Below are positions 2,682 through 18,019 of a DNA stretch of 64,000 bases, one piece after another. Source of the stretch: a virus; IMG/VR virus record IMGVR_UViG_3300030450_002056, positions 1 to 64,000 of that record. One strand, written 5' to 3'. Made by a program: the position numbers and the translations under genes. Positions within the stretch are counted from its first letter, which is position 1; each line of letters opens with the position of its first letter. Under the pieces are notes generated by a model. It ran no database searches and was not told the DNA's origin. It saw only the letters and a program-made list of their open reading frames with translations.

Positions 2682-2916
2682 TTTACCACCACTCATCTAA
2701 TCGGCCAGTCCTCAATTATCATCGCGAGCAGTTGCTCCCTAGCCCATGTATGGTTACAATATCCATGATACCGACAATTCTCTTTCGGGTTTTCTAGTGT
2801 TTCTATACAGATAAGGGCCAAATCGTGAGGCGACACTTTCACCCATGAACTCCCGCGATAAGTAGTTAAATCTTTTATTTTTTCTTCTCTATTCATTTTA
2901 CCACCACTCATCTAAT
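2679..2916. repeat. Perfect 23-bp direct repeat CATTTTACCACCACTCATCTAAT at 2679-2701 and 2894-2916
   Basis: Read directly from the sequence. It duplicates the polB stop/RBS/start junction. Confidence 0.9.
2693..2896 (-). CDS. Hypothetical protein flanked by a 23-bp direct repeat
   Basis: ORF track; likely start MNREE. Confidence 0.5.
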   Translation of the reverse strand: MNREEKIKDLTTYRGSSWVKVSPHDLALICIETLENPKENCRYHGYCNHTWAREQLLAMIIEDWPIR

Positions 2917-3803
2917 GACCTTTGCTTCAAGTCTTTCTTAATATCGTTAATATCCCAATTCATTGCCTCAAATATAGGTGCGGCCTTTCTCACTACTACT
3001 TCTGAATAGTGTTCCCAATCAGGAGTATAATCTTCAAAATCTTCTTCCAAGATACCTGATATATAATCAGGCCTAATATAGTTCCCCGTTAGTGGGTGCA
3101 TTAGTAGATGGCGATGATTTTGATTAACTTTCATAAACAAGAAAGAATCTTTAATTTCATTTCCTGTAACATGGTTATAAAAATATGCTCCCATTAAACC
3201 CGAACCAAAAGAAACCCTTTTACCATTTGATTTCCAATATTTACCTGTCTTCATTGCGCCTGTATATTCATGTTTATGTTCTCCAACGGATAAGGGTTTA
3301 TCTTCAAATATATGAAATGCCTTCTTACAATTCTCACAATACACATGGAAGCGTTCTTCTTTATAACTACTTCGCTTGATGATTTGATTTAATTCAATAT
3401 CACCACTCAATACATCATTGTATCTCTCACGAAGATAATCTAGAATTTCTATTTTAGTGCATCCATTAACCCACATCTTTAATGTGGTTATCTGAATTTC
3501 TTTTGCTAACTTAGTTTCTGATATTCTTTTTGCAGTAAAGCCAGTCATGAAGAATTCTTCTTCTTCTAAATATCTTCCATCTTTCCAAGAAATTAAACCT
3601 GCATTTCTATTCTTAGTTGCACCTACACCAAGACTACTAAAATACTTTTCAAATTCAAGCACTACAGGGTGTTCTTTTAATCCTAATACATTAGGGAATA
3701 TTTTTCTAACTTCTTCATTTAATTTAACTACTATTTCTTCTGCTTGCTCAACAGAATCTACTTGGCAATAAATCGAATCAGTATGACCATAAACTACCTT
3801 CAT
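2898..3803 (-). CDS. polB: Family B DNA polymerase, C-terminal subunit of a split PolB (motif C, thumb, PIP-like tail)
   Basis: YGHTDS (motif C variant), LEFEKYF, KNRNAG, GFTAKR, and C-terminal QRSLDEWW PCNA-interacting peptide. Confidence 0.9.
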   Translation of the reverse strand: MKVVYGHTDSIYCQVDSVEQAEEIVVKLNEEVRKIFPNVLGLKEHPVVLEFEKYFSSLGVGATKNRNAGLISWKDGRYLEEEEFFMTGFTAKRISETKLAKEIQITTLKMWVNGCTKIEILDYLRERYNDVLSGDIELNQIIKRSSYKEERFHVYCENCKKAFHIFEDKPLSVGEHKHEYTGAMKTGKYWKSNGKRVSFGSGLMGAYFYNHVTGNEIKDSFLFMKVNQNHRHLLMHPLTGNYIRPDYISGILEEDFEDYTPDWEHYSEVVVRKAAPIFEAMNWDINDIKKDLKQRSLDEWW

Positions 3804-4006
3804 TCTTCCAATCCCCAATTAGTAGTTTGCCACGCTCTTTCATGGAAATAATAGAATACAAATTTAGTTAACACTTCAACTGTAATTATACTTGCGGCAA
3901 CTATAGAATCACCAGTAATAAACCATGCTATTACAAAAGTATCTAGCGTTGCTATTAATCTCCATGTTATCGCTTTCATTCCGCTTCTTTTCTTTGTTGC
4001 ACTCAT
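3800..4006 (-). CDS. DUF2061-like small membrane protein
   Basis: KRSxxKAITWRxxAT...FYYFHERAW signature with two hydrophobic segments. Confidence 0.75.
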   Translation of the reverse strand: MSATKKRSGMKAITWRLIATLDTFVIAWFITGDSIVAASIITVEVLTKFVFYYFHERAWQTTNWGLEE

Positions 4007-4101: not shown

Positions 4102-4214
4102 TTATACAACCCCTCCATACAATCACACAGATGTCGCTTTTTATATGGCCCTCTGGAAGAATGAGGATTAAGAATTCCCCCACACTCCATACATTCTATA
4201 TCTTTCTCTATCAT
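4098..4214 (-). CDS. Putative 38-aa Zn-binding microprotein
   Basis: Manual translation MIEKDIECMECGG...HLCDCMEGLYK; ATGA-coupled to the stop of the polB N-terminal gene. Confidence 0.45.
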   Translation of the reverse strand: MIEKDIECMECGGILNPHSSRGPYKKRHLCDCMEGLYK

Positions 4215-5905
4215 AATTCTCTCACCCTAAATGCCGCCTCTCTAATTGCTTCTCTTGAACTAGCAGTAATGCTAGCGGCTAAATCAATATCACACCAACC
4301 GAATCCTTGATTACCAACAATGCCGTAGAAAGAGGCCATTAATCTTTTAACAGCCATTTGGTTATTATTCCACTTATTGTAATCTTCTTTAGTAGAAGAA
4401 TTTTTCATGTTAGTTTTATACTGATTCCTTAATGTTTTCAATTCCATAACAGAACGAGGAAGTAATCCTAATTTATCCGTTTTGTAATATAACATCTCAT
4501 GTTTTTCAACAGGAGAAAAATCTCTTGGAGTAGATATATTTACTGCAAACTCAGTTGGTTCGGTAGATTTAGTTTCCCATGAGATATTACGGGCAATCAT
4601 CATTGATGGGTATAGACCTGCAAAATCAAATGCCGCCACATTAAGATGCAATCCATTTGTTCCTTCAGATGTGGGGTCATAAATTAATGCCCCTTCATAA
4701 TCTTTACCATCTCTTTTACCACCTGTAGGGGCTTTCCAAGAAGCATTACGCATAAAGTATATAGAAGCCATGTGAGTTGCATGAAAACAAGCCTCAAACG
4801 GTGCTTTCAATATTCGTTGTAATGAAGTTATTGCATCAGTTAAGTTATTGTTATCATCAATCTTTCGTATTAAATCAACATCTATTAGTGCATATTCCAA
4901 ATATGTATCTGTATCTTCTTCCCATGCTCTTCTAAAGAATTCATTTTTTTCTGGGAATTTTTCACTAACAAGTTTCTTATTACCTAATATAGTTTCTGAA
5001 ACATAATCAAGTGATAAAGTTGGTAGTGTTCCTCTTTGGGAATCAATCCATTGTCGCTCAAATGCTAAATCTAAACTAACAACAATTCTACCTTTAATGG
5101 GCTGTTCTTTAGGGCCAAAAAAATCTCTATTGAATTTACTATCTCTAGAATTATATACATAATTAGAAACTTCTAATACAGGAGATAATAACCGAGCATC
5201 AATATTGTAAAATGCACATCTTTCTAATAATTTAGGTAGGTCGAATCTATTACCAAACCAAGCAATTAACATATCAGGGTCTTTTGCCGCACAATAATTT
5301 ACAAAAGTTCTTAACAACATTTCTTCATTCTGAGAAGTAATTAGAGTCACTTGAGAATCAGTATCAATTACAGGAGTATCTCTCTCATACAATTCATCAG
5401 TGGGAAACCAACAATAGAGTATGTATTCATCATCATAATTATCATAACAACTAATACAGGTAATTTTACCATCATGTTCTCCACCTTGTTGCCATTCCAT
5501 ATCCCAATACCACTTACGCATATCATATTCATGGTAAGGAACACCATCTATGAATCTATCAATTGATGCTCTGTAATGATACTGAACATCTGCTTCATAA
5601 GTTTGAGTATCATATAATTCCGTCATTTCTTTAGATACCACTTTTATTTCAGATGGATGATTACAAATTACTTTCGTCAGTTTTTCACCCTCTAAATTAT
5701 ACCACTCGCCTTCTTCATATCGCAGAGAATATACCTTACTGTTTTTCCATCTATCATTTTTATACATTTGGTCTGGCTTAAATGCAGTTTCTTTAACATA
5801 AAAATAAGGTGGGTAATCTGAAAATGGTATTATCTCAGATTCCCTTTCCTTATCTTCATTGCGCCATGCAAAATATATTCCTTTATTTGTATTTGATATT
5901 ATCAT
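4211..5905 (-). CDS. polB: Family B DNA polymerase, N-terminal subunit of a split PolB (3'-5' exonuclease, motifs A and B)
   Basis: ExoI WDMEW, ExoII FGNRFD, ExoIII YALID, motif A DFAGLYPS, motif B QMAVKRLMASFYG. The ORF ends before motif C. Confidence 0.92.
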   Translation of the reverse strand: MIISNTNKGIYFAWRNEDKERESEIIPFSDYPPYFYVKETAFKPDQMYKNDRWKNSKVYSLRYEEGEWYNLEGEKLTKVICNHPSEIKVVSKEMTELYDTQTYEADVQYHYRASIDRFIDGVPYHEYDMRKWYWDMEWQQGGEHDGKITCISCYDNYDDEYILYCWFPTDELYERDTPVIDTDSQVTLITSQNEEMLLRTFVNYCAAKDPDMLIAWFGNRFDLPKLLERCAFYNIDARLLSPVLEVSNYVYNSRDSKFNRDFFGPKEQPIKGRIVVSLDLAFERQWIDSQRGTLPTLSLDYVSETILGNKKLVSEKFPEKNEFFRRAWEEDTDTYLEYALIDVDLIRKIDDNNNLTDAITSLQRILKAPFEACFHATHMASIYFMRNASWKAPTGGKRDGKDYEGALIYDPTSEGTNGLHLNVAAFDFAGLYPSMMIARNISWETKSTEPTEFAVNISTPRDFSPVEKHEMLYYKTDKLGLLPRSVMELKTLRNQYKTNMKNSSTKEDYNKWNNNQMAVKRLMASFYGIVGNQGFGWCDIDLAASITASSREAIREAAFRVREL

Positions 5906-9073: not shown

Positions 9074-9985
9074 TTACATTGTTTTTCCAATCAACCAACT
9101 GCATAATAATTTAGGGGTTGTTGAGCGGCTACGCCATTCTGCTTCTCCTATAATCTTTAACAATTGGAATTTTTTTGTTTGCGTCATATTAGTATCTAAA
9201 ACTGCATCGTGCAAATTAATACATACTGTGTTCATATCAGTCACTTGATATATTCTTGAGTGTAATTTATCCAGAGCATTCTCATATTTATTCTCTAATA
9301 TCATTTTTATTATTTCTGAATAAGGTTCAAGACTTTGTTTAGTGACCTTTGATAATGGGCTATTACTGGCGATTGACGCTTGTAGTTCAGTAATGCCTCT
9401 ACGAATATCACCATGCAGACCCCCTATAAATGCCTCGATATTTTCATTATTGGGTAGTTTATGGTTTTCTTGCTTTAATATCCTCTCTAAAATTAACCTG
9501 ATGTTTTCATCAGATAATCTTGTAAATTGATAATTAGCACACCTTGACTGCAATGGGTAGATAATTTTAGACCTATCATTACAAGTTAAGATAAATCTAC
9601 AGTTATCTGCATAGCGTTCCATAATGCGCTTCAATGCATTTTGTGCATCTTTAGTCATACCATCCATCTCATCTAAAAGGATAACTTTAAACGGCACATC
9701 GCCTACTTTAGATGTTGATGCTATTTCTTTAATTTTTGTTCTAACAGTTTCCAACTTTCTATCATCTGATGCATTTAACTCAACAAAGTTAGACTGTTTA
9801 AATTTACCTAACATCTCATTTGCTAATGCTCCTGCGGCGGCAGTTTTACCTGTTCCGGCTACACCAAACAATAAAACATTAGGCATTTCTTTACTAACAA
9901 CCCAATTTTCTGCATCCATAATAAAACTATATTGACCTATTACTTCACTTAAATAATAAGGCCTGTATTTTTCTGTCCATAACAT
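9074..9985 (-). CDS. rfcS: Replication factor C small subunit (clamp loader)
   Basis: LWTEKYRP, GVAGTGKT, ELNASDDR, ILLDEMD, AQNALKRIME, LQSRC. Confidence 0.95.
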   Translation of the reverse strand: MLWTEKYRPYYLSEVIGQYSFIMDAENWVVSKEMPNVLLFGVAGTGKTAAAGALANEMLGKFKQSNFVELNASDDRKLETVRTKIKEIASTSKVGDVPFKVILLDEMDGMTKDAQNALKRIMERYADNCRFILTCNDRSKIIYPLQSRCANYQFTRLSDENIRLILERILKQENHKLPNNENIEAFIGGLHGDIRRGITELQASIASNSPLSKVTKQSLEPYSEIIKMILENKYENALDKLHSRIYQVTDMNTVCINLHDAVLDTNMTQTKKFQLLKIIGEAEWRSRSTTPKLLCSWLIGKTM

Positions 9986-10245
9986 TACTCTTCCTCTCCT
10001 ACATAAACCCACTTTGAAGTTATATTTTTACCTGCGTTTGGGTTAGTTTGCAGATAATTTGAATCTGAGGACAGTATCGCCCCCAACTGTTGATGTGTTG
10101 TTTGGGTGTATCTATGAAGACCTACCCCATATTTACTTTTATATCTATTTAGAAAATCTACTGCTTCTTGAGTAGAAAACTCAATTTTAGTTTTATGGAA
10201 CTCTAACAGTGCTTTCTTTTTATGGTAATGTTTTCCTAATTTCAT
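9985..10245 (-). CDS. Small basic winged-helix-like protein
   Basis: FSTQEAVDFL...QQLGAIL pattern; resembles the adjacent ORF. Confidence 0.45.
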   Translation of the reverse strand: MKLGKHYHKKKALLEFHKTKIEFSTQEAVDFLNRYKSKYGVGLHRYTQTTHQQLGAILSSDSNYLQTNPNAGKNITSKWVYVGEEE

Positions 10246-10537
10246 TTTTATTCCTCTTATGTCTATATATATTATGATTTGCGGTAGATTTTCCAACAAT
10301 AATTACTTTACTATTGTATCTCAAAAAACGAGATACATGAGAATGGTGATAAGAATATTGCTTTCTAACGTTTCCATGTCTGTCTAATTCACCATCTGTT
10401 TCCCAATAATAGGAAAGCCAATTACGCATATCTCTTACAGTAAATGTGCCTTCCATCCTATCTAGAACATAGTCTAATTGTTTCCATCTTCTTGAATTGG
10501 TGTTTAATAGCCAAGGTTTCTTTTTCCCTCTAACCAT
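10220..10537 (-). CDS. Small basic winged-helix-like protein
   Basis: FTVRDMRNWL...SHVSRFL pattern. Confidence 0.45.
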   Translation of the reverse strand: MVRGKKKPWLLNTNSRRWKQLDYVLDRMEGTFTVRDMRNWLSYYWETDGELDRHGNVRKQYSYHHSHVSRFLRYNSKVIIVGKSTANHNIYRHKRNKNEIRKTLP

Positions 10538-11397: not shown

Positions 11398-11796
11398 TCA
11401 GATTAAACCTTTTAATTCAAGTATTCTATCTAACCCTTGTGAGTTTTGATGTCCCTTGACTTCGTGAACAATATTCCTTGCTTCTTTAAATACATTCCAA
11501 TTATTGTTATGTGGAATATTATCTGGAACAAGGTTGCACAACCCATATAATGCGGCCTTACCAGTTACAGTAAGAATCGGTCTGGGCCTTGATTTATGTT
11601 CTTGTGCCTTGAACTTCGCTATGATATTATGTTGTTTTAATGTCCTTCCTATTGCTAATAAATAATCTTCTTTTCCTCGAAAATTAACTCTTAACCTAAC
11701 TCTATAGCCAATACTGGCAGTTAAGTCCCTAGATACGTTTATCTCACATTTGGCTCCTGATATTAATATTCCTTCTAACTGTTCTTTGGTATACAT
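11398..11796 (-). CDS. LAGLIDADG-fold protein, apparently catalytically degenerate
   Basis: EQLEGILISGAKCEINVS helix-strand, GYRVRLRVNF, and C-terminal GHQNSQGLDRILELK typical of single-motif LAGLIDADG proteins. Confidence 0.6.
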   Translation of the reverse strand: MYTKEQLEGILISGAKCEINVSRDLTASIGYRVRLRVNFRGKEDYLLAIGRTLKQHNIIAKFKAQEHKSRPRPILTVTGKAALYGLCNLVPDNIPHNNNWNVFKEARNIVHEVKGHQNSQGLDRILELKGLI

Positions 11797-12266
11797 TATT
11801 CATACAACTCCTTACATAATGAGGCTTCAATGTTATGGTCAGGCCAAACCCCGCGACCTTGATTTGGTGAAAGTTGAACCCAATACCAATGACTCGGCAT
11901 TATTCTCCTTTTACCTTCTTGGATTGCATTTTGCTCAGCATAGGAGGCTAACTCTCTAACAAGCCCCTCAATCTGGTCTTTAACAAAATAAATCAAATCG
12001 TTAGATACCGACAACTCAGCAACTTCATCTTTGATTATCTTAGAGAGATTCAAAATTTTAGCCTTCCGTTTAGGGGTCTTTGGCTTGGTTGGAACGATAA
12101 TATCTCCTTTTTCATCAAAGTAAGGACACATTTCTACGCGATACTTTCGCAACCTACCCCTACTTTCCTCTGCGACCTTCTTCAAAAACGCATACCCATC
12201 TTCGATTTTTACACACTGATACGGCCAATTCTCTATTAGGGTCATTTTACCTACTTCAATCATCAT
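11796..12266 (-). CDS. Histone-fold protein with N-terminal extension
   Basis: LSKIIKDEVAELSVSNDLIYFVKDQIEGLVRELASYAEQNAIQEGKRRIMPSH aligns by eye with archaeal HMf (RIIK...RVSDDA...A...A...GRKTIK.ED). Confidence 0.72.
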   Translation of the reverse strand: MMIEVGKMTLIENWPYQCVKIEDGYAFLKKVAEESRGRLRKYRVEMCPYFDEKGDIIVPTKPKTPKRKAKILNLSKIIKDEVAELSVSNDLIYFVKDQIEGLVRELASYAEQNAIQEGKRRIMPSHWYWVQLSPNQGRGVWPDHNIEASLCKELYE

Positions 12267-13813
12267 ATCATCTCCATAACTGTGGTTAGTGTATCTATGT
12301 CTTTAGGGAACTTATCCTCTCGGATTCGTTTTACTCTCGGAAATCTTAGTCCGTAATTACCTTGCTCATCTTGGCTTACTAAATCAGCAGAAACTTCTAA
12401 TACTATTCTAGGTAAGAAATGGAATGTATCTCCTTCATATGAATCAACATTCTTTTTAAGGTTAGTAGTTAATAAAAACAATTGTGCCTCTGATAGTCCC
12501 GTTCCAACAGAACCTACTGGTATATACTCATCCCCGTCTAATACAGAAATTCCTAATGTCCCAAATACACCGCTTCTTTTACCTTCGCCATATTTTCCAG
12601 AAGTAATAACTACATCAAGAGATACTCTAGGAGGTTTATGTTTTAACCAACCTTTACTTCTCTTTCCAGATTGATAGGGCATATTACCATCTTTAATCAT
12701 TATACCCTCAAAGCCTAAATCAATTGCAGTTTGGTAAGCACTTGCTTCTGTAAAATCTCCATCTGAACCAAACACATAAGTTTGATATTCCTTTGGGACT
12801 ACTTTTTGTAGGGTTTCCATCCTTACACTTTGAGGTTGTTCTAAATATGATTTACCATCTAAAGACAATAAATCAAACACGGCTAATTTAACAGGGCATT
12901 GTTGAACAGCCTCCGCCTTATTTAGTTTGTGAACTCTCTTTGCTAACAGTTTATGTTCAGCAGGTGAACCATCTAAATTAATGGGGTATATTTCTGTGTC
13001 TAAAATTACATTTGTGCTTTCAAAATCTCTAACAATGTTAACAATGTCGGGATATTGGCTAGTTACAATATTGCCCTTCCGATTAAAAATAATTATAGAT
13101 ACAGCATTGGCAACCCATGATTTATGTATTTGATATCTATTACCATCATACTTAATATCAACTATAGCATTCCTAACAACATCTCTCGGTTTCTTTGCTT
13201 TAGCCAACATAGGCTTAACAAACTGCCCATGAACTAATTTACACTCTGGAACTTTTCCAGCATCTAACTCAGAACAAATCTTACTGGCTGTATTATATTT
13301 ATGGTATTCCATAACTTTAGAATCACTGTAATACTTTGATAAGACCTTTAATGGTATTTTATTATTAACACCATTTCTAGGCTTTCTAAGCCAATATCTA
13401 ACAAACCATTTTTTCTCTAAGCAATTCATTTGTTTTATTGCTTTAGAAAACCTAACGTAAGATGGGCCTGACTGTGATGCACAATCCATTTCAAGTAATG
13501 ATATAAATTCTGAAATAGTAATACCTGAAGAATCATTTTCACCTTCATACAATACATATAGACCCTCGCCCATATCTCCCCAACAATTTATTTCATATTC
13601 TAGTTCTTCTTCAAATAAACCTAATGCGCTAGAAACCCACTTTATAGATTTCTTAGAACCCATATTATTATTAGCATATTCTAAAGATAGAATCTTAATT
13701 ACAGATGGCTTATCTTCAAAAGAAGAAAGGTTCTCTGAAATTATTTTCACCTTTTCTGTGGGGGGTTTATCTTCAATTAGTTGGCACAAATTAGAAATCT
13801 GTTGAAGACTCAT
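12263..13813 (-). CDS. lig: ATP-dependent DNA ligase (archaeal type)
   Basis: KPMLA, KYDGNRYQIH, ILDTEI, VFDLL, EGIMIK, WLKHK, LRFPR. Confidence 0.95.
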   Translation of the reverse strand: MSLQQISNLCQLIEDKPPTEKVKIISENLSSFEDKPSVIKILSLEYANNNMGSKKSIKWVSSALGLFEEELEYEINCWGDMGEGLYVLYEGENDSSGITISEFISLLEMDCASQSGPSYVRFSKAIKQMNCLEKKWFVRYWLRKPRNGVNNKIPLKVLSKYYSDSKVMEYHKYNTASKICSELDAGKVPECKLVHGQFVKPMLAKAKKPRDVVRNAIVDIKYDGNRYQIHKSWVANAVSIIIFNRKGNIVTSQYPDIVNIVRDFESTNVILDTEIYPINLDGSPAEHKLLAKRVHKLNKAEAVQQCPVKLAVFDLLSLDGKSYLEQPQSVRMETLQKVVPKEYQTYVFGSDGDFTEASAYQTAIDLGFEGIMIKDGNMPYQSGKRSKGWLKHKPPRVSLDVVITSGKYGEGKRSGVFGTLGISVLDGDEYIPVGSVGTGLSEAQLFLLTTNLKKNVDSYEGDTFHFLPRIVLEVSADLVSQDEQGNYGLRFPRVKRIREDKFPKDIDTLTTVMEMI

Positions 13814-14039
13814 CTTGACCACCTCTATAGAATAAACTAATTACCGCCCTTTGAACGTGATGTTTATTTAATTTCTTATCGTCTGCATTATTAAATTCCC
13901 GTATAGTCATATTAATGACTTCCTCTAACCTATGGGCCATATATTTTTCTATTTCCACATAAGTATCGGAATTAACATAAGTTCCTCTTTCTAAATTATT
14001 CTTCATTTCTTTCTTCAATGTTCTCATAGATATTATCAT
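13791..14039 (-). CDS. Small histone-fold protein
   Basis: 82 aa with a helix-loop (YVNSDT)-long helix-loop (KKLNKHHV)-helix layout. Confidence 0.55.
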   Translation of the reverse strand: MIISMRTLKKEMKNNLERGTYVNSDTYVEIEKYMAHRLEEVINMTIREFNNADDKKLNKHHVQRAVISLFYRGGQDESSTDF

Positions 14040-14641: not shown

Positions 14642-15150
14642 AACCTATACTCAACAGAATAAGTTACTGTTATATCATACTGGAAATCAGGAACATATAC
14701 CCCTGCTAACCCTAGTTGTGGAGCATGACCCATATTAAACAGTATTTTATCTACATCTACTATTGTATAATTATGCGTCATGTTATCGGTTTCATTTACA
14801 AGAATGGTAATTACATATTCTGAAGTTTCTTCTTGATACAAATACCCCATGTTGCCTTCTTGGAAAGTTAAATTGTTAAATATAACAGAATTATTATCTA
14901 CTGTAAAACTAAGATGAGTTGCAGTCATAGTTATTGATTGAATCTCCATCCACTTACTTTCATTACCAATGAATACAGGAACATAAGTTTCGTTTTCTAA
15001 AACGACAATTTCACCTGATTCTGTTTCCCAATCAGGATAACTACAATCACTAAATATCTCATCAGGGCTAGGTAGGCTATCAGCACAACCTGCCATAAAA
15101 CTACATACTATCATTAACGCTATCATTTTCTTTTTATTTGTTTTGCTCAT
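14617..15150 (-). CDS. Predicted lipoprotein
   Basis: Basic N-region, hydrophobic stretch, lipobox MAGC, beta-rich acidic mature domain. Confidence 0.65.
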   Translation of the reverse strand: MSKTNKKKMIALMIVCSFMAGCADSLPSPDEIFSDCSYPDWETESGEIVVLENETYVPVFIGNESKWMEIQSITMTATHLSFTVDNNSVIFNNLTFQEGNMGYLYQEETSEYVITILVNETDNMTHNYTIVDVDKILFNMGHAPQLGLAGVYVPDFQYDITVTYSVEYRLWDGKECV

Positions 15151-15361
15151 CTTCTTCACCTTTTATTATGCTTTGTTGCCATTCTGTTATTTTTCGATGC
15201 ATGGCTTCGTAATCATCTTCTAATCCATCTTCTCTAATCTGTTGTCCAATATCAAATAATACATTAATAAATTCCTCAACCCCAATCCCAACAGACTCGG
15301 CCCTCTCTTGTATCTCAAGCCATCGTTCTTTGGTTAAGTAGATTGTGGTAAAAGGGTTCAT
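15134..15361 (-). CDS. Ribbon-helix-helix-like small protein
   Basis: TTIYLTKERWLEIQERAESVGIGVEEFINVL. Confidence 0.45.
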   Translation of the reverse strand: MNPFTTIYLTKERWLEIQERAESVGIGVEEFINVLFDIGQQIREDGLEDDYEAMHRKITEWQQSIIKGEEDEQNK

Positions 15362-15552
15362 TCTGACCCCTCCGAGTAAAAATCTACTAGAGTGGCATCT
15401 GGTCTATCTTTAAAATAATCGACTCTCATAAGTTCAAGTATTAAATAGTCATCGAAAGAATAAAATCTAGGTAAATAACCTGTGGCCTTTGCCTTCTTGA
15501 AATATTCAACCATTGATTCTCTGTTTTTTACCATATCATCATATATACTCAT
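15358..15552 (-). CDS. Hypothetical protein
   Basis: ORF track; ATGA-coupled. Confidence 0.5.
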   Translation of the reverse strand: MSIYDDMVKNRESMVEYFKKAKATGYLPRFYSFDDYLILELMRVDYFKDRPDATLVDFYSEGSE

Positions 15553-15770
15553 TCTTCTTCACCTTGAATCTTGGCTATTTCAGTTCTAATTGCATCTACA
15601 TGATGAGTTACATCTTTTCCAACTGAGTTATAACAAAGGTTGGTTATAATATTGTTTAACCATTCTTCGTCATTTACATTATAAGACATAAGTAACTCTA
15701 ATATTTGAGCCATGCCTTCATCAATGCCATCTTTCTTAATTACTGCTTTTACTACTTCATTTGTATTCAT
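15549..15770 (-). CDS. Hypothetical protein
   Basis: ORF track; ATGA-coupled. Confidence 0.5.
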   Translation of the reverse strand: MNTNEVVKAVIKKDGIDEGMAQILELLMSYNVNDEEWLNNIITNLCYNSVGKDVTHHVDAIRTEIAKIQGEEE

Positions 15771-16057
15771 TCTTCTTCAACCCCTTTTATACTAAATTCT
15801 CCAACCAATGTAATATTGTAACGCTCTCTATCCATAAGTTCACCTGTGCTTCTTGCAATCCTAATATCATAACCAGTTGCGATATTATTACAAACATACC
15901 ATATTTTTTCCCAAAGCCTATCTTCGGTTATGGGTGGTTTTATTTTCTGGGTTTTGCTTATCATAGTATCAACTATGTATAAATCTTCAGTATAGCCCAA
16001 AAGAATCAGTGCTTCTCTTAATGACTCTATCTTTTTCTTGTTTAATTCTATGCTCAT
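15767..16057 (-). CDS. Hypothetical protein
   Basis: ORF track; ATGA-coupled. Confidence 0.5.
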   Translation of the reverse strand: MSIELNKKKIESLREALILLGYTEDLYIVDTMISKTQKIKPPITEDRLWEKIWYVCNNIATGYDIRIARSTGELMDRERYNITLVGEFSIKGVEEE

Positions 16058-16272
16058 TCTTCTTCACCTTCTAACACAAACCAACTAGAAATTAACCATT
16101 GTTTTGCTACTGCAATAGTAGTTGTTAACCCGTATTCCCAGTCTTCATGGTTTCTAAATTCAATATACCAATCAGGATTGGTCTTTTCCATGTCTTCAAT
16201 AATTTTTAGATACTTTATTGCGTTTTCTAAAGTTATTCTTGCTTCTCTATTTGATGGGCCAGTAAATCTCAT
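16054..16272 (-). CDS. Hypothetical protein
   Basis: ORF track; ATGA-coupled. Confidence 0.5.
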   Translation of the reverse strand: MRFTGPSNREARITLENAIKYLKIIEDMEKTNPDWYIEFRNHEDWEYGLTTTIAVAKQWLISSWFVLEGEEE

Positions 16273-16772
16273 TCTTCTTCCCCCGTATCAATAGTTTTAA
16301 TCGAAGAATCATAAAAGAATATATCTTTTGTATCTCCATTTTCATCAAAGTATATTTTCTTACCCATGTCCTCAGATATCTTATATGCGTAATATTGTAA
16401 ATTACCCAATACAACTGCATATTCCATTACGGTCTTCCAAGTATTAATAGTTCCCCAATCGGTGCTACTAAAATATGCTTCACCAAAAGGATGAGTATGA
16501 ATCCAACACTTAATAGGCAAGCACATCTTCTGCTCATTTAATTCTTCTTCGTGATTCATAAACGATACAAAGGAAGGAGTGCCGCTACTAATAAATATGT
16601 TATTATTTTTATCAATAACAACCTGCACTTCCATACCTTCTAAATCTTCACTAGAAGCCTTCCAAATAGAGGCAAGGAATAGTTCAGCATCAGCATTGGG
16701 GAAATCCCATTTAGCATCTTCCTTAACCATATCCCAATATTCTCTTATTTCAGTCTTCCATTCTGTTTCCAT
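16269..16772 (-). CDS. JAB/MPN+ (JAMM) metalloprotease, putative Ubl-processing/deconjugating enzyme
   Basis: Upstream Glu (GMEVQV) and an exact JAMM motif H-x-H-x7-S-x2-D (HTHPFGEAYFSSTD). Confidence 0.88.
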   Translation of the reverse strand: METEWKTEIREYWDMVKEDAKWDFPNADAELFLASIWKASSEDLEGMEVQVVIDKNNNIFISSGTPSFVSFMNHEEELNEQKMCLPIKCWIHTHPFGEAYFSSTDWGTINTWKTVMEYAVVLGNLQYYAYKISEDMGKKIYFDENGDTKDIFFYDSSIKTIDTGEEE

Positions 16773-16776
16773 ATAC

Positions 16777-17151
16777 TTAACTCCAATCAATGTAATTCCC
16801 TTCCGTTAATAAATACAATCCTACAACTGCTGCAATAGAGGCAACTATAAACCTTCTAATCTTTGCTTCATGTTCTAAAACTGTTACCCTGTTTGCGTGG
16901 TTTGTTATTTTATCTGCTAACTTTACATACTCAACTACTTCTTCTGTGGTTATGTCTTCTTTTACATAATGTTCCATATTGTCAACTATGTTCTTTTTAA
17001 TAAGTTGTCGCCTTTTAGAAGAGATAGCACCTTTAGTTCTTTTTGTGCCTTCAAACCTCTCAAGGGTTTCTTTTAATGTGCAACCGTCAGCCACACATTC
17101 TTTCATCACTGTTAATTCATCATCTGTCCATCTTAAATTATATTTTGCCAT
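16777..17151 (-). CDS. Myb/SANT-like HTH protein with C-terminal transmembrane helix
   Basis: RWTDDEL...RTKGAISSKR, then FIVASIAAVVGLYLL. Confidence 0.55.
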   Translation of the reverse strand: MAKYNLRWTDDELTVMKECVADGCTLKETLERFEGTKRTKGAISSKRRQLIKKNIVDNMEHYVKEDITTEEVVEYVKLADKITNHANRVTVLEHEAKIRRFIVASIAAVVGLYLLTEGNYIDWS

Positions 17152-17162
17152 GTTTAATCACC

Positions 17163-17447
17163 TCATAGTATGCAACCTTTATTGCATCTAAAATGATTTG
17201 GGTTATGTTTTGTTGACCCAAACCAAATTACTTTTCCATCACACTTAGGACAATCATCTTCAAGTTTTAAATCCTTGTAGATTACCCTATTGTGTTCTTT
17301 CATTATTTTCCGCATCATCATAATATCTACGCCGGGTTCTTCTTTAGAGTATCTTACTCCCTTATCCGATTTTCTTACATTTTTATCATTAGGATGCCTT
17401 TCTTTATGGTCTGCTACTCTTTCTATTATTGTTATTTTATCTTTCAT
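17163..17447 (-). CDS. Zn-ribbon protein
   Basis: CPKCDG...FRCNKGC. Confidence 0.55.
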   Translation of the reverse strand: MKDKITIIERVADHKERHPNDKNVRKSDKGVRYSKEEPGVDIMMMRKIMKEHNRVIYKDLKLEDDCPKCDGKVIWFGSTKHNPNHFRCNKGCIL

Positions 17448-18019
17448 ATACTCACCATCATGTATTCAATTACTTCATCACCGTTAAGATACCTATGCAA
17501 CCATTGCGCCCCCATACCTGCAATAATTGTATGTGTTAAATTAACCCCTTTCGCTTTACCTGCCCAATCCCCCGCTTGGCATGAATACGAACCATCTGGG
17601 CCTTCTAATAAAGAATCGGCCATTTTATCATTTATTTTACAAGAAATTAATGCGCCGTTTCTACCTTGCGCTCGCAAATCTAGCCACTCTATCCCATCAT
17701 CTCCACCTTGATTAGACATATAAATCAACCGTCTAACAGTTAAATTGTCTGCACAACACACTACCATATCATAACCTTTAATCTGATTTACTGTTAATAC
17801 AGGGTATGGTTGCCCAGAAACAGATGAATAGCGAGCCATCATTGCTTCTGCTTTATTTAAAGTAATTTCTTCTTCATTGTAATTTTGATACAGTAGATTT
17901 TTCTTTTCAATAGTATCATTATCAAATACTGTTATAGTGTAACAACCTAATCTATCTAATAGTGGAATTAAGTAACTACCTATTCCACCTGCCCCTATTA
18001 TTAATATTTTCTTTTTCAT
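17444..18019 (-). CDS. ThiF/MoeB/E1-family ubiquitin-like activating enzyme
   Basis: IIGAGGIGS, FDNDTIEKKNLLYQ, CCADNLTVR, and candidate catalytic Cys in SYSCQ. Confidence 0.9.
   Translation of the reverse strand: MKKKILIIGAGGIGSYLIPLLDRLGCYTITVFDNDTIEKKNLLYQNYNEEEITLNKAEAMMARYSSVSGQPYPVLTVNQIKGYDMVVCCADNLTVRRLIYMSNQGGDDGIEWLDLRAQGRNGALISCKINDKMADSLLEGPDGSYSCQAGDWAGKAKGVNLTHTIIAGMGAQWLHRYLNGDEVIEYMMVSI

Follow-up and report, generated by a model that had tools for sequence, protein, structure and literature searches.

Do the two small genes that flank a replicative DNA ligase in this viral genome encode histone-fold proteins, and what would such proteins do for the virus? We addressed this question in a window of 64,000 nucleotides, meaning the whole stretch of DNA under analysis, which comprises positions 1 to 64,000 of the IMG/VR record IMGVR_UViG_3300030450_002056. 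The first-pass annotation of the window had proposed two divergent histone-fold genes, here called ORF-A and ORF-B (ORF, open reading frame). Both genes were located, on the minus strand (Table 1), and the histone-fold assignment held for both proteins, with AlphaFold2 models and fold searches for each and a significant profile match for the ORF-A family. With moderate confidence, we read ORF-A and ORF-B as virus-specific histone-fold proteins fixed in a magrovirus-like replication operon, where they would serve as small architectural or accessory DNA-binding factors and not as nucleosome-like wrappers.

The evidence for the fold of ORF-A comes from profiles and models. The ORF-A family profile was built from 79 sequences, which also underlie the conservation counts for this family. 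Against the PDB, it matched the archaeal histone HmvA (8bdk) over the whole fold with an E value of 1.8e-5, followed by many H2A, H2B, HMf, NF-YB, and NC2 chains. Twenty-eight of the 79 members had a Pfam match to PF00808, ten to PF00125, seven to TAFII28, and six to DUF1931. ORF-A itself scored 14.6 bits with PF00808, under the Pfam gathering cut-off of 21.4 bits, and relatives exceeded this cut-off with up to 24.3 bits, three of five complete relatives among them. In the Foldseek search, the ORF-A fold was superimposed on HMfB (5t5k_A) with a root-mean-square deviation (rmsd) of 1.2 over 50 columns at 34% identity, and CENP-W, NF-YB, and H2A were also retrieved. An exhaustive structural search (VIA) split the ORF-A model into two domains. 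For residues 72-156, which include the helix 143-155, it returned NF-YB3, CHRAC, H2B, and Dpb4, only at Z 4.9-5.4 with an rmsd of about 4 Å. The second helix (a2) of the model is 28 residues long, and DSSP assigned helix to only three residues (124-126) of a3. The conserved residues of the fold are K79, S88, R121, and H126; in the C-terminal part, G139 is invariant and W141 is kept in 76 of the 79 sequences.

ORF-B is smaller and more diverged in sequence. Its AlphaFold2 model reached a predicted local distance difference test score (pLDDT) of 85.5, with block means of 92-97 across residues 11-70, and consists of a1 (5-15), a2 (24-50), and a 14-residue a3 (59-72). The top 50 Foldseek matches were histone folds without exception (probability 0.99-1.00, TM ~0.7), and VIA gave Z 7.3-7.9 over 70-78 residues. 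At the sequence level, ORF-B scored 17.7 bits with PF00808 against the cut-off of 21.4 (Pfam E 0.0044). Its best PDB profile matches, TAF11/TAFII28, ORP2, and NC2 beta, were all histone-fold proteins with E values of 0.09-0.8, none of them significant; in one of these searches, the top four matches had E values of 0.3-0.8. Five of 21 family members matched PF00808, and three matched TAFII28. When all six frames of the complete 95,498-bp sequence were scanned with PF00808, matches were found at 13842-14021 (E 5.3e-4) and 11889-12050 (E 1.4e-3) and nowhere else. Taken as structural models, both proteins are predicted to adopt the histone fold.

Both genes are conserved and under purifying selection. 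Among close relatives, the ratio of nonsynonymous to synonymous substitution rates (dN/dS) was 0.18-0.25 for ORF-A and 0.07-0.17 for ORF-B, and because these values are low, we regard both as real, selected genes. Direct searches gave close relatives only, and the ligase was used as an anchor to fetch diverged viral loci. The ORF-A family comprises 86 protein clusters and more than 120 IMG/VR loci, whereas ORF-B has 12 representative clusters among 1.84 billion proteins and 38 fetched loci. The ORF-B alignment holds 48 rows, namely the 21 rows of alignment A6, of which five stem from the 12 representative clusters, and unique homologues from the fetched viral loci. Deeper alignments were required, as the shallow alignments A1 and A2 neither resembled one another nor gave a significant match in the PDB. 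A scan with alignment A12 gave no match. Neither ORF-A nor ORF-B matched in the GenBank phage collection, the BFVD viral structures held no full-length ORF-A match, and PHROGs returned nothing useful. No close cellular homologue of ORF-A or ORF-B was found, one likely mis-binned contig aside. This contig (NZMJ01000151.1, 24 kb) was the source of the only ORF-A relative in a genome collection of 185,579 species, where it belongs to a 'Maricaulis sp.' metagenome-assembled genome (MAG). Its ORF-A relative (locus L138) is 68% identical, and the contig is most likely a magrovirus contig wrongly binned into a bacterial MAG. As far as sequence searches reach, the virus-only distribution of both genes is established.

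ORF-A carries more than a histone fold. The first-pass annotation had described an N-terminal domain of about 70 residues with a tail-like Lys/Pro-rich linker. The extra domain stood, and so did a basic linker of 14 residues placed as a histone tail would be. The term tail-like applies to this linker alone, and residues 1-58 are modelled as a folded barrel. Four strands (8-11, 14-22, 25-30, and 40-43) form this barrel in the AlphaFold2 model. With residues 1-60, VIA retrieved Spt5 KOW5 at Z 6.9 (53 residues aligned, rmsd 2.5), followed by KOW6-7 of human DSIF (5ohq) at Z 6.1, Tudor and chromo domains at Z 5.2-5.4, and PWWP barrels. Within the barrel, C18 is kept in 73 of the 79 sequences (the other six have gaps), G37 and R38 in 77 of the 79, and P48 is invariant. 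The linker reads PTKPKTPKRKAKIL, with a net charge of +6, and the KPKTPKRKAK stretch pointed out earlier corresponds to residues 61-70. Across the 79 relatives, the linker spans 13-15 residues with 34% K+R, 25% P, and 3% D+E, and its net charge ranges from +2 to +8. Relatives keep the linker basic without conserving particular lysines, in whose place Arg or Pro is often found. Modification of this linker by the viral GNAT or ubiquitin-like (Ubl) system, which had also been raised, is speculation.

We then compared both families with nucleosomal histones. Residues were mapped to HMfB and HmvA through HMMER and hhalign alignments; hhalign also placed ORF-B in register with ORF-A, at a weak E value of 0.004. 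For the roles of R10, K13, T54, the L1 Arg, and the R-K-T...D signature in HMfB, we use the customary assignments. The positions of HMfB R10 and K13 are occupied by K76 and K79 in ORF-A and by K10 and K13 in ORF-B. At the position of T54, ORF-A has R121 (R/K in 78 of 79) and ORF-B has K56 (K/R in 36 of 48). The Asp of a3 is replaced by His in both families (H126, 78 of 79; H61, 39 of 48). In ORF-A, the L2 Arg of G-R-K-T-I-K-A-x-D is also replaced, usually by D, and the L1 Arg position is filled by P/Q/S in ORF-A and by H/Y/F in ORF-B. The sequence around L2 and a3 reads G-(D/K)-x-R-I-T-A-A-H in ORF-A and D-(K/R)-(K/R)-(L/I)-x-x-x-H in ORF-B. The (K/R)-h-x-x-x-H-h motif at the L2/a3 junction, which is unusual, is common to both families and hints, at the level of sequence, at shared ancestry of the two folds or at a shared constraint. 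Archaeal nucleosomal histones such as HMfB and the HmvA/MJ1647 type (8bdk) have the same three-helix fold, and their Lys/Arg positions in a1 are retained here. The Arg, Thr, and Asp of R-K-T...D are, however, replaced and the L1 Arg is lost, and ORF-A differs further by its added domains and acidic fold. With the R-K-T...D signature and the L1 Arg lost in both, neither protein is therefore a nucleosomal-type histone by signature.

The genomic position of the two genes provides the third line of evidence. The order along the operon is PC4-like gene, ORF-B, ligase, and ORF-A. A Shine-Dalgarno-like GAGGA lies 8 nt before the ORF-B ATG, the likely ligase ATG at 13813 falls within the last codons at the 3' end of ORF-B, and the ORF-A start is overlapped by the ligase stop (ATGA), with GGAG upstream. 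Judged by these junctions, ORF-B, the ligase, and ORF-A form one compact, translationally coupled operon, which sits in a block with RFC and split PolB genes. Diverged loci keep the order Zn-ribbon protein, PC4-like protein, ORF-B, ligase, ORF-A, and 132-aa protein. The 132-aa protein follows ORF-A in loci L005-L013 and L139-L142, and in some lineages it is preceded by an inserted ORF of 110-112 aa. In every ORF-B locus inspected, the PC4-like gene is directly upstream of ORF-B. We found no literature on the ligase-flanking arrangement or on histone folds in magroviruses.

The window is the first part of a 95,498-bp genome, which is complete per CheckV. The G+C content is 31-42% per 2-kb window and about 33% in most. 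The minus-strand half holds the replication module, with the split PolB, an RFC-like AAA+ ATPase, the ATP-dependent ligase, and a ribonucleotide reductase, in addition to a PD-(D/E)XK nuclease, a ThiF-type E1, a JAB protein, and a TFIIB/TFB-like protein. The plus-strand half encodes head-tail morphogenesis, including a terminase, a portal, a prohead protease, an SU10-type capsid protein, and a second ligase. One PolB gene carries the exonuclease domain and polymerase positions 37-195, and the other carries positions 221-363; the polymerase is closest, at about 25% identity, to those of haloarchaeal tailed viruses. Two ligases, one of them within the structural block, are a hallmark of magrovirus groups A and B, and a split PolB is known for group-B magroviruses (Philosof et al. 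2017, PMC5434244). The present virus shares with the published magroviruses the two ligases, the split PolB, and a near-complete archaeal-type replisome (PMC5434244). The likeness extends to the size of complete relatives, 94-96 kb in this record and five others, and to their marine metagenome sources. Magroviruses are described as abundant in the surface ocean (PMC5434244), and the window sequence was present in marine DNA metagenomes only, with no RNA run among the sequencing runs listed. By its gene content, the genome looks like that of a group-B magrovirus-like, head-tailed archaeal virus, and Poseidoniales are the presumed host by analogy with the published magroviruses.

Table 1. Positions of ORF-A, ORF-B, and other genes in the 64,000-nt window
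Feature	Position	Strand	Description
ORF-A, 156 aa	11796-12266	-	KOW-like barrel, basic linker, histone fold, and C-terminal helix (predicted); AlphaFold2 pLDDT 86.7
ORF-A residues 1-58	12093-12266	-	Predicted SH3-like beta-barrel, KOW/Tudor type
ORF-A residues 59-72	12051-12092	-	Basic Pro/Lys/Arg linker immediately before helix a1
ORF-A residues 73-131	11874-12050	-	Predicted histone fold: a1 74-81, a2 89-116, short a3 from 124
ORF-A residues 132-156	11796-11873	-	Conserved G-x-W-P loop and C-terminal helix 143-155
ORF-B, 82 aa	13791-14039	-	Predicted minimal histone-fold singlet: fold 1-72, acidic tail 73-82
Replicative ATP-dependent ligase	12263-13822	-	Pfam DNA_ligase_A_N, _M, _C (M domain 5.8e-33); between ORF-B and ORF-A
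PC4-like protein, 81 aa	13996-14241	-	Directly upstream of ORF-B; Pfam PC4 E 0.018, below cut-off
Conserved protein, 132 aa	11398-11796	-	Directly downstream of ORF-A; no Pfam or PHROG match
JAB-domain protein	16269-16790	-	Pfam E 9.8e-4, below cut-off
ThiF-family E1	17444-18019	-	E 1.6e-20
TFIIB/TFB-like protein, 287 aa	18026-18889	-	TFIIB zinc ribbon E 6e-6, TFIIB cyclin repeat E 7.4e-6
Split family B DNA polymerase (PolB)	4211-5905 + 2898-3818	-	Two genes, small ORFs between
Second ATP-dependent DNA ligase, 848 aa	54541-57087	+	Inside the head-morphogenesis block, immediately before the prohead protease

In the reading that we favor, each protein would form a handshake dimer that binds the viral DNA duplex irrespective of its sequence. 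Contacts to the DNA would come from the two conserved lysines of a1 and the conserved Arg/Lys of L2, the basic Pro/Lys/Arg linker of ORF-A would add further contacts, and the KOW/Tudor-like barrel may bind nucleic acid or a protein of the replisome or of transcription. The two proteins would play an architectural or accessory role during replication and nick sealing. ORF-A would be the core component and work without ORF-B, whereas ORF-B would be an accessory specific to its lineage and might combine with ORF-A into mixed dimers.

Several points weigh against this reading. The histone-fold part of ORF-A is acidic, with a net charge of -2 here and a family median of -4. ORF-B is neutral overall, its fold being mildly basic (+3 here, median +2). 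Because of these charges, DNA binding is not assured. The position in a replication operon suggests a role in replication and is no proof of it. The Z scores of 5-8 given by VIA lie in the range where small domains can match through a common arrangement alone. Finally, a role in transcription stays open because a TFB-like gene lies 4 kb away.

The distribution of the two genes bears on whether they act as a pair. Across 38 loci, ORF-B was never found without ORF-A, and in these loci the gene order is kept down to 19-25% ORF-B identity. A sister lineage has ORF-A without ORF-B in 53 loci with enough flanking sequence. Five complete sister-lineage genomes of 94-96 kb have no ORF-B match, and the ORF-A homologue is their only PF00808 match. 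In the 53 loci, the slot upstream of the ligase (loci L016-L094, for example, L020:2622-2972, plus strand) is taken by an unrelated conserved protein of 117 aa, A9. No locus has both A9 and ORF-B, and none has neither (53 versus 34 loci). ORF-A is 150-166 aa long beside ORF-B and 146-149 aa long in the lineage without it. The ORF-B/A9 split and the difference in ORF-A length follow the same two clades and therefore represent one evolutionary event. For A9, neither the PDB profile search, nor hhalign comparison with the ORF-A and ORF-B families, nor Pfam gave any sign of a histone fold.

These data allow, as a tentative alternative, an obligate H2B/H2A-like heterodimer of the two proteins, comparable to NF-YB/NF-YC, NC2, or Dpb3-Dpb4, which would chromatinise viral DNA or serve as a replisome cofactor. 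ORF-A and ORF-B are the sole two histone-fold genes of the genome and are coupled within one operon. ORF-B, which consists of a minimal fold, always accompanies ORF-A. The ORF-A range with the C-terminal helix aligns to NF-YB, CHRAC, H2B, and Dpb4, and both families carry the unusual L2/a3 motif. ORF-A is also longer where ORF-B is present, but this difference reduces to the single clade split described above. In the sister lineage, both in the 53 loci and in the five complete genomes of about 95 kb, ORF-A is the only detectable histone fold, which argues against an obligate partner. The mirror-tree test also gave no signal of ORF-A/ORF-B co-evolution: of the four operon genes, this pair had the lowest correlation of pairwise distances (r 0.40, partial -0.22), compared with 0.80 for ORF-A and the ligase, and ORF-B evolves about three times faster than ORF-A. 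The test is weak, because the ORF-B distances are near saturation.

The known H2A/H2B-type pairs (NF-YB/NF-YC, NC2 alpha/beta, Dpb3/Dpb4, and CHRAC-14/16) likewise combine two unlike histone folds, one of which has an added C-terminal helix, and Dpb3/Dpb4 is a replisome accessory that binds double-stranded DNA. Members of such pairs were retrieved with both models in the structural searches, with a similarity no better than to other histone folds; by contrast with them, ORF-A exists without ORF-B in the sister lineage. A stronger form of the pairing proposal is a magrovirus two-component system. Here, a KOW-tethered H2B-like protein and a minimal H2A-like protein would ride with the replisome as a heterodimer and coat nascent viral DNA, as an old virus-borne pair independent of host chromatin. 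Poseidoniales, the presumed host lineage, seem to lack conventional histones that bind DNA. We consider this version doubtful.

It is improbable that the two proteins are transcription factors, that is, NC2/TAF/NF-Y-like folds which, with the viral TFB-like protein, would bind TBP/TFB-promoter complexes, or RNA polymerase through the barrel, and redirect host transcription. The best sequence and structure neighbors of ORF-B include TAF11/TAFII28 and NC2 beta, and the matches of ORF-A include NC2 beta and NF-YB. However, these matches hold for histone folds in general, and TAF/NC2 are not set apart from true histones by any E value or Z score. The N-terminal domain is closest to Spt5 KOW domains, but a KOW-like barrel is a common small fold, here matched at Z below 8. 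A TFB-like gene and an adjacent PC4-like gene are present, yet the two histone-fold genes lie within the ligase/RFC/PolB block and not beside the TFB gene.

We also see little probability in a purely protein-scaffolding role, in which neither protein would bind DNA. As in many non-chromatin histone-fold proteins, the folds would then be dimerisation or adaptor modules that tether, for example, the ligase, the clamp, or other replisome parts. The acidic ORF-A fold, the overall neutral ORF-B, and the loss of the nucleosomal DNA-binding signature are consistent with such a role, although conservation extends to the lysines of a1 and the Arg/Lys of L2, and the linker has a strongly basic character. 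According to a 2026 survey (PMC13260811), the histone-fold proteins of Poseidoniales are all acidic and four-fold and may lack DNA binding. A scaffolding role would resemble what is suspected for these host proteins, the cluster-5 proteins of the survey. On the other side, acidic archaeal histones can retain a basic DNA-binding ridge (PMC13260811). The survey also weakens the remodelling of host chromatin that the first-pass annotation had considered, which becomes less likely because the presumed hosts have only such acidic, possibly non-DNA-binding proteins.

That one or both ORFs are helical mimics of the histone fold, or not genes at all, is hardly credible: both score under the Pfam gathering cut-off and ORF-B has no significant sequence E value against any solved histone, but both are conserved in many IMG/VR loci with low dN/dS and confident AlphaFold2 models, the fold-search lists hold purely histone folds, and the ORF-A profile match is significant.

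Among the other genes of the replication module, the PC4-like protein has 20 invariant columns in six aligned relatives, including W29, N30, I31, D35, R37, W38, Y39, T45, R46, K47, and G48; the PDB profile search gave no confirmation of its PC4 identity. The TFB-like gene adjoins the ThiF-type E1 gene and looks like a virus-encoded transcription factor. The JAB and ThiF E1 genes agree with the Ubl system noted earlier for this virus, and no link between them and the histone-fold proteins was found. Many small proteins of the module (15134-16790 and 9985-10299, minus strand) end in ...GEEE or ...EEE. At the junction 16054-16057, which reads GGTGAAGAAGAATGA, the coding end contains a Shine-Dalgarno-like GGTGA as well as the ATG of the following gene (ATGA overlap). 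If other junctions match this one, the sole junction inspected, the acidic tails would arise as a side effect of translational coupling.

We finally compared ORF-A and ORF-B with the histone folds known from viruses. In the literature examined, the experimentally characterised virus-encoded histones are those of giant viruses of eukaryotes, and the histone-fold proteins of archaeal and bacterial tailed viruses are known by computation only (Liu et al. 2025, PMC13681535; Schwab et al. 2024, PMC11390915). The histone doublets and multiplets of Marseilleviridae and Medusavirus are also virus-encoded histone folds, eukaryote-like homologues of H2A/H2B/H3/H4 that build nucleosomes and package virion DNA; ORF-A and ORF-B lack both the signatures and the multiplicity that these functions would require. 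By mining IMG/VR, Liu et al. (hLife 2025, PMC13681535) described 'viral KOW histone-fold proteins' (VKHFP) in Caudoviricetes. Like ORF-A, these combine a histone fold, a long loop, and a KOW-like barrel near Spt5 KOW6 (5OHQ). They are known by computation only, as a monomeric model with no genomic context, host, or partner given (PMC13681535). Unlike the published VKHFP, ORF-A is placed in a magrovirus replication operon, where it adjoins the ligase and has another histone-fold gene close by. Going by its modelled architecture and Caudoviricetes origin rather than by the sequence list of those authors, ORF-A fits the VKHFP class. The alpha3-truncated or 'phage' histones of Schwab et al. (Nat Commun 2024, PMC11390915) also come from tailed-virus metagenomes and have a short a3, no nucleosomal motif, and added domains. 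Their a3 has 3-4 residues, and their a2 is shortened by 4-5 (PMC11390915). In ORF-A, the DSSP a3 likewise covers three residues, but a2 is full-length (28 residues), the fold is C-terminal, and the barrel is N-terminal, whereas the a3 of ORF-B, at 14 residues, is not shortened. Neither the magrovirus paper (PMC5434244) nor a 2025 paper on Poseidoniales viruses mentions histones. The ORF-A type is thus already known by computation, and ORF-B represents a cryptic histone-fold family of which we found no description in the literature.

A KOW-histone-fold protein and a second, cryptic family are now placed in a conserved magrovirus replication operon, together with the distribution of their relatives. 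ORF-A and ORF-B offer a concrete pair of small proteins that can be tested for dimer type and DNA binding. If they are only accessory DNA binders, the result is a useful annotation and little more. If they do pair as a viral heterodimer, and the host has no classical histones, the finding would bear on how paired histones evolved.

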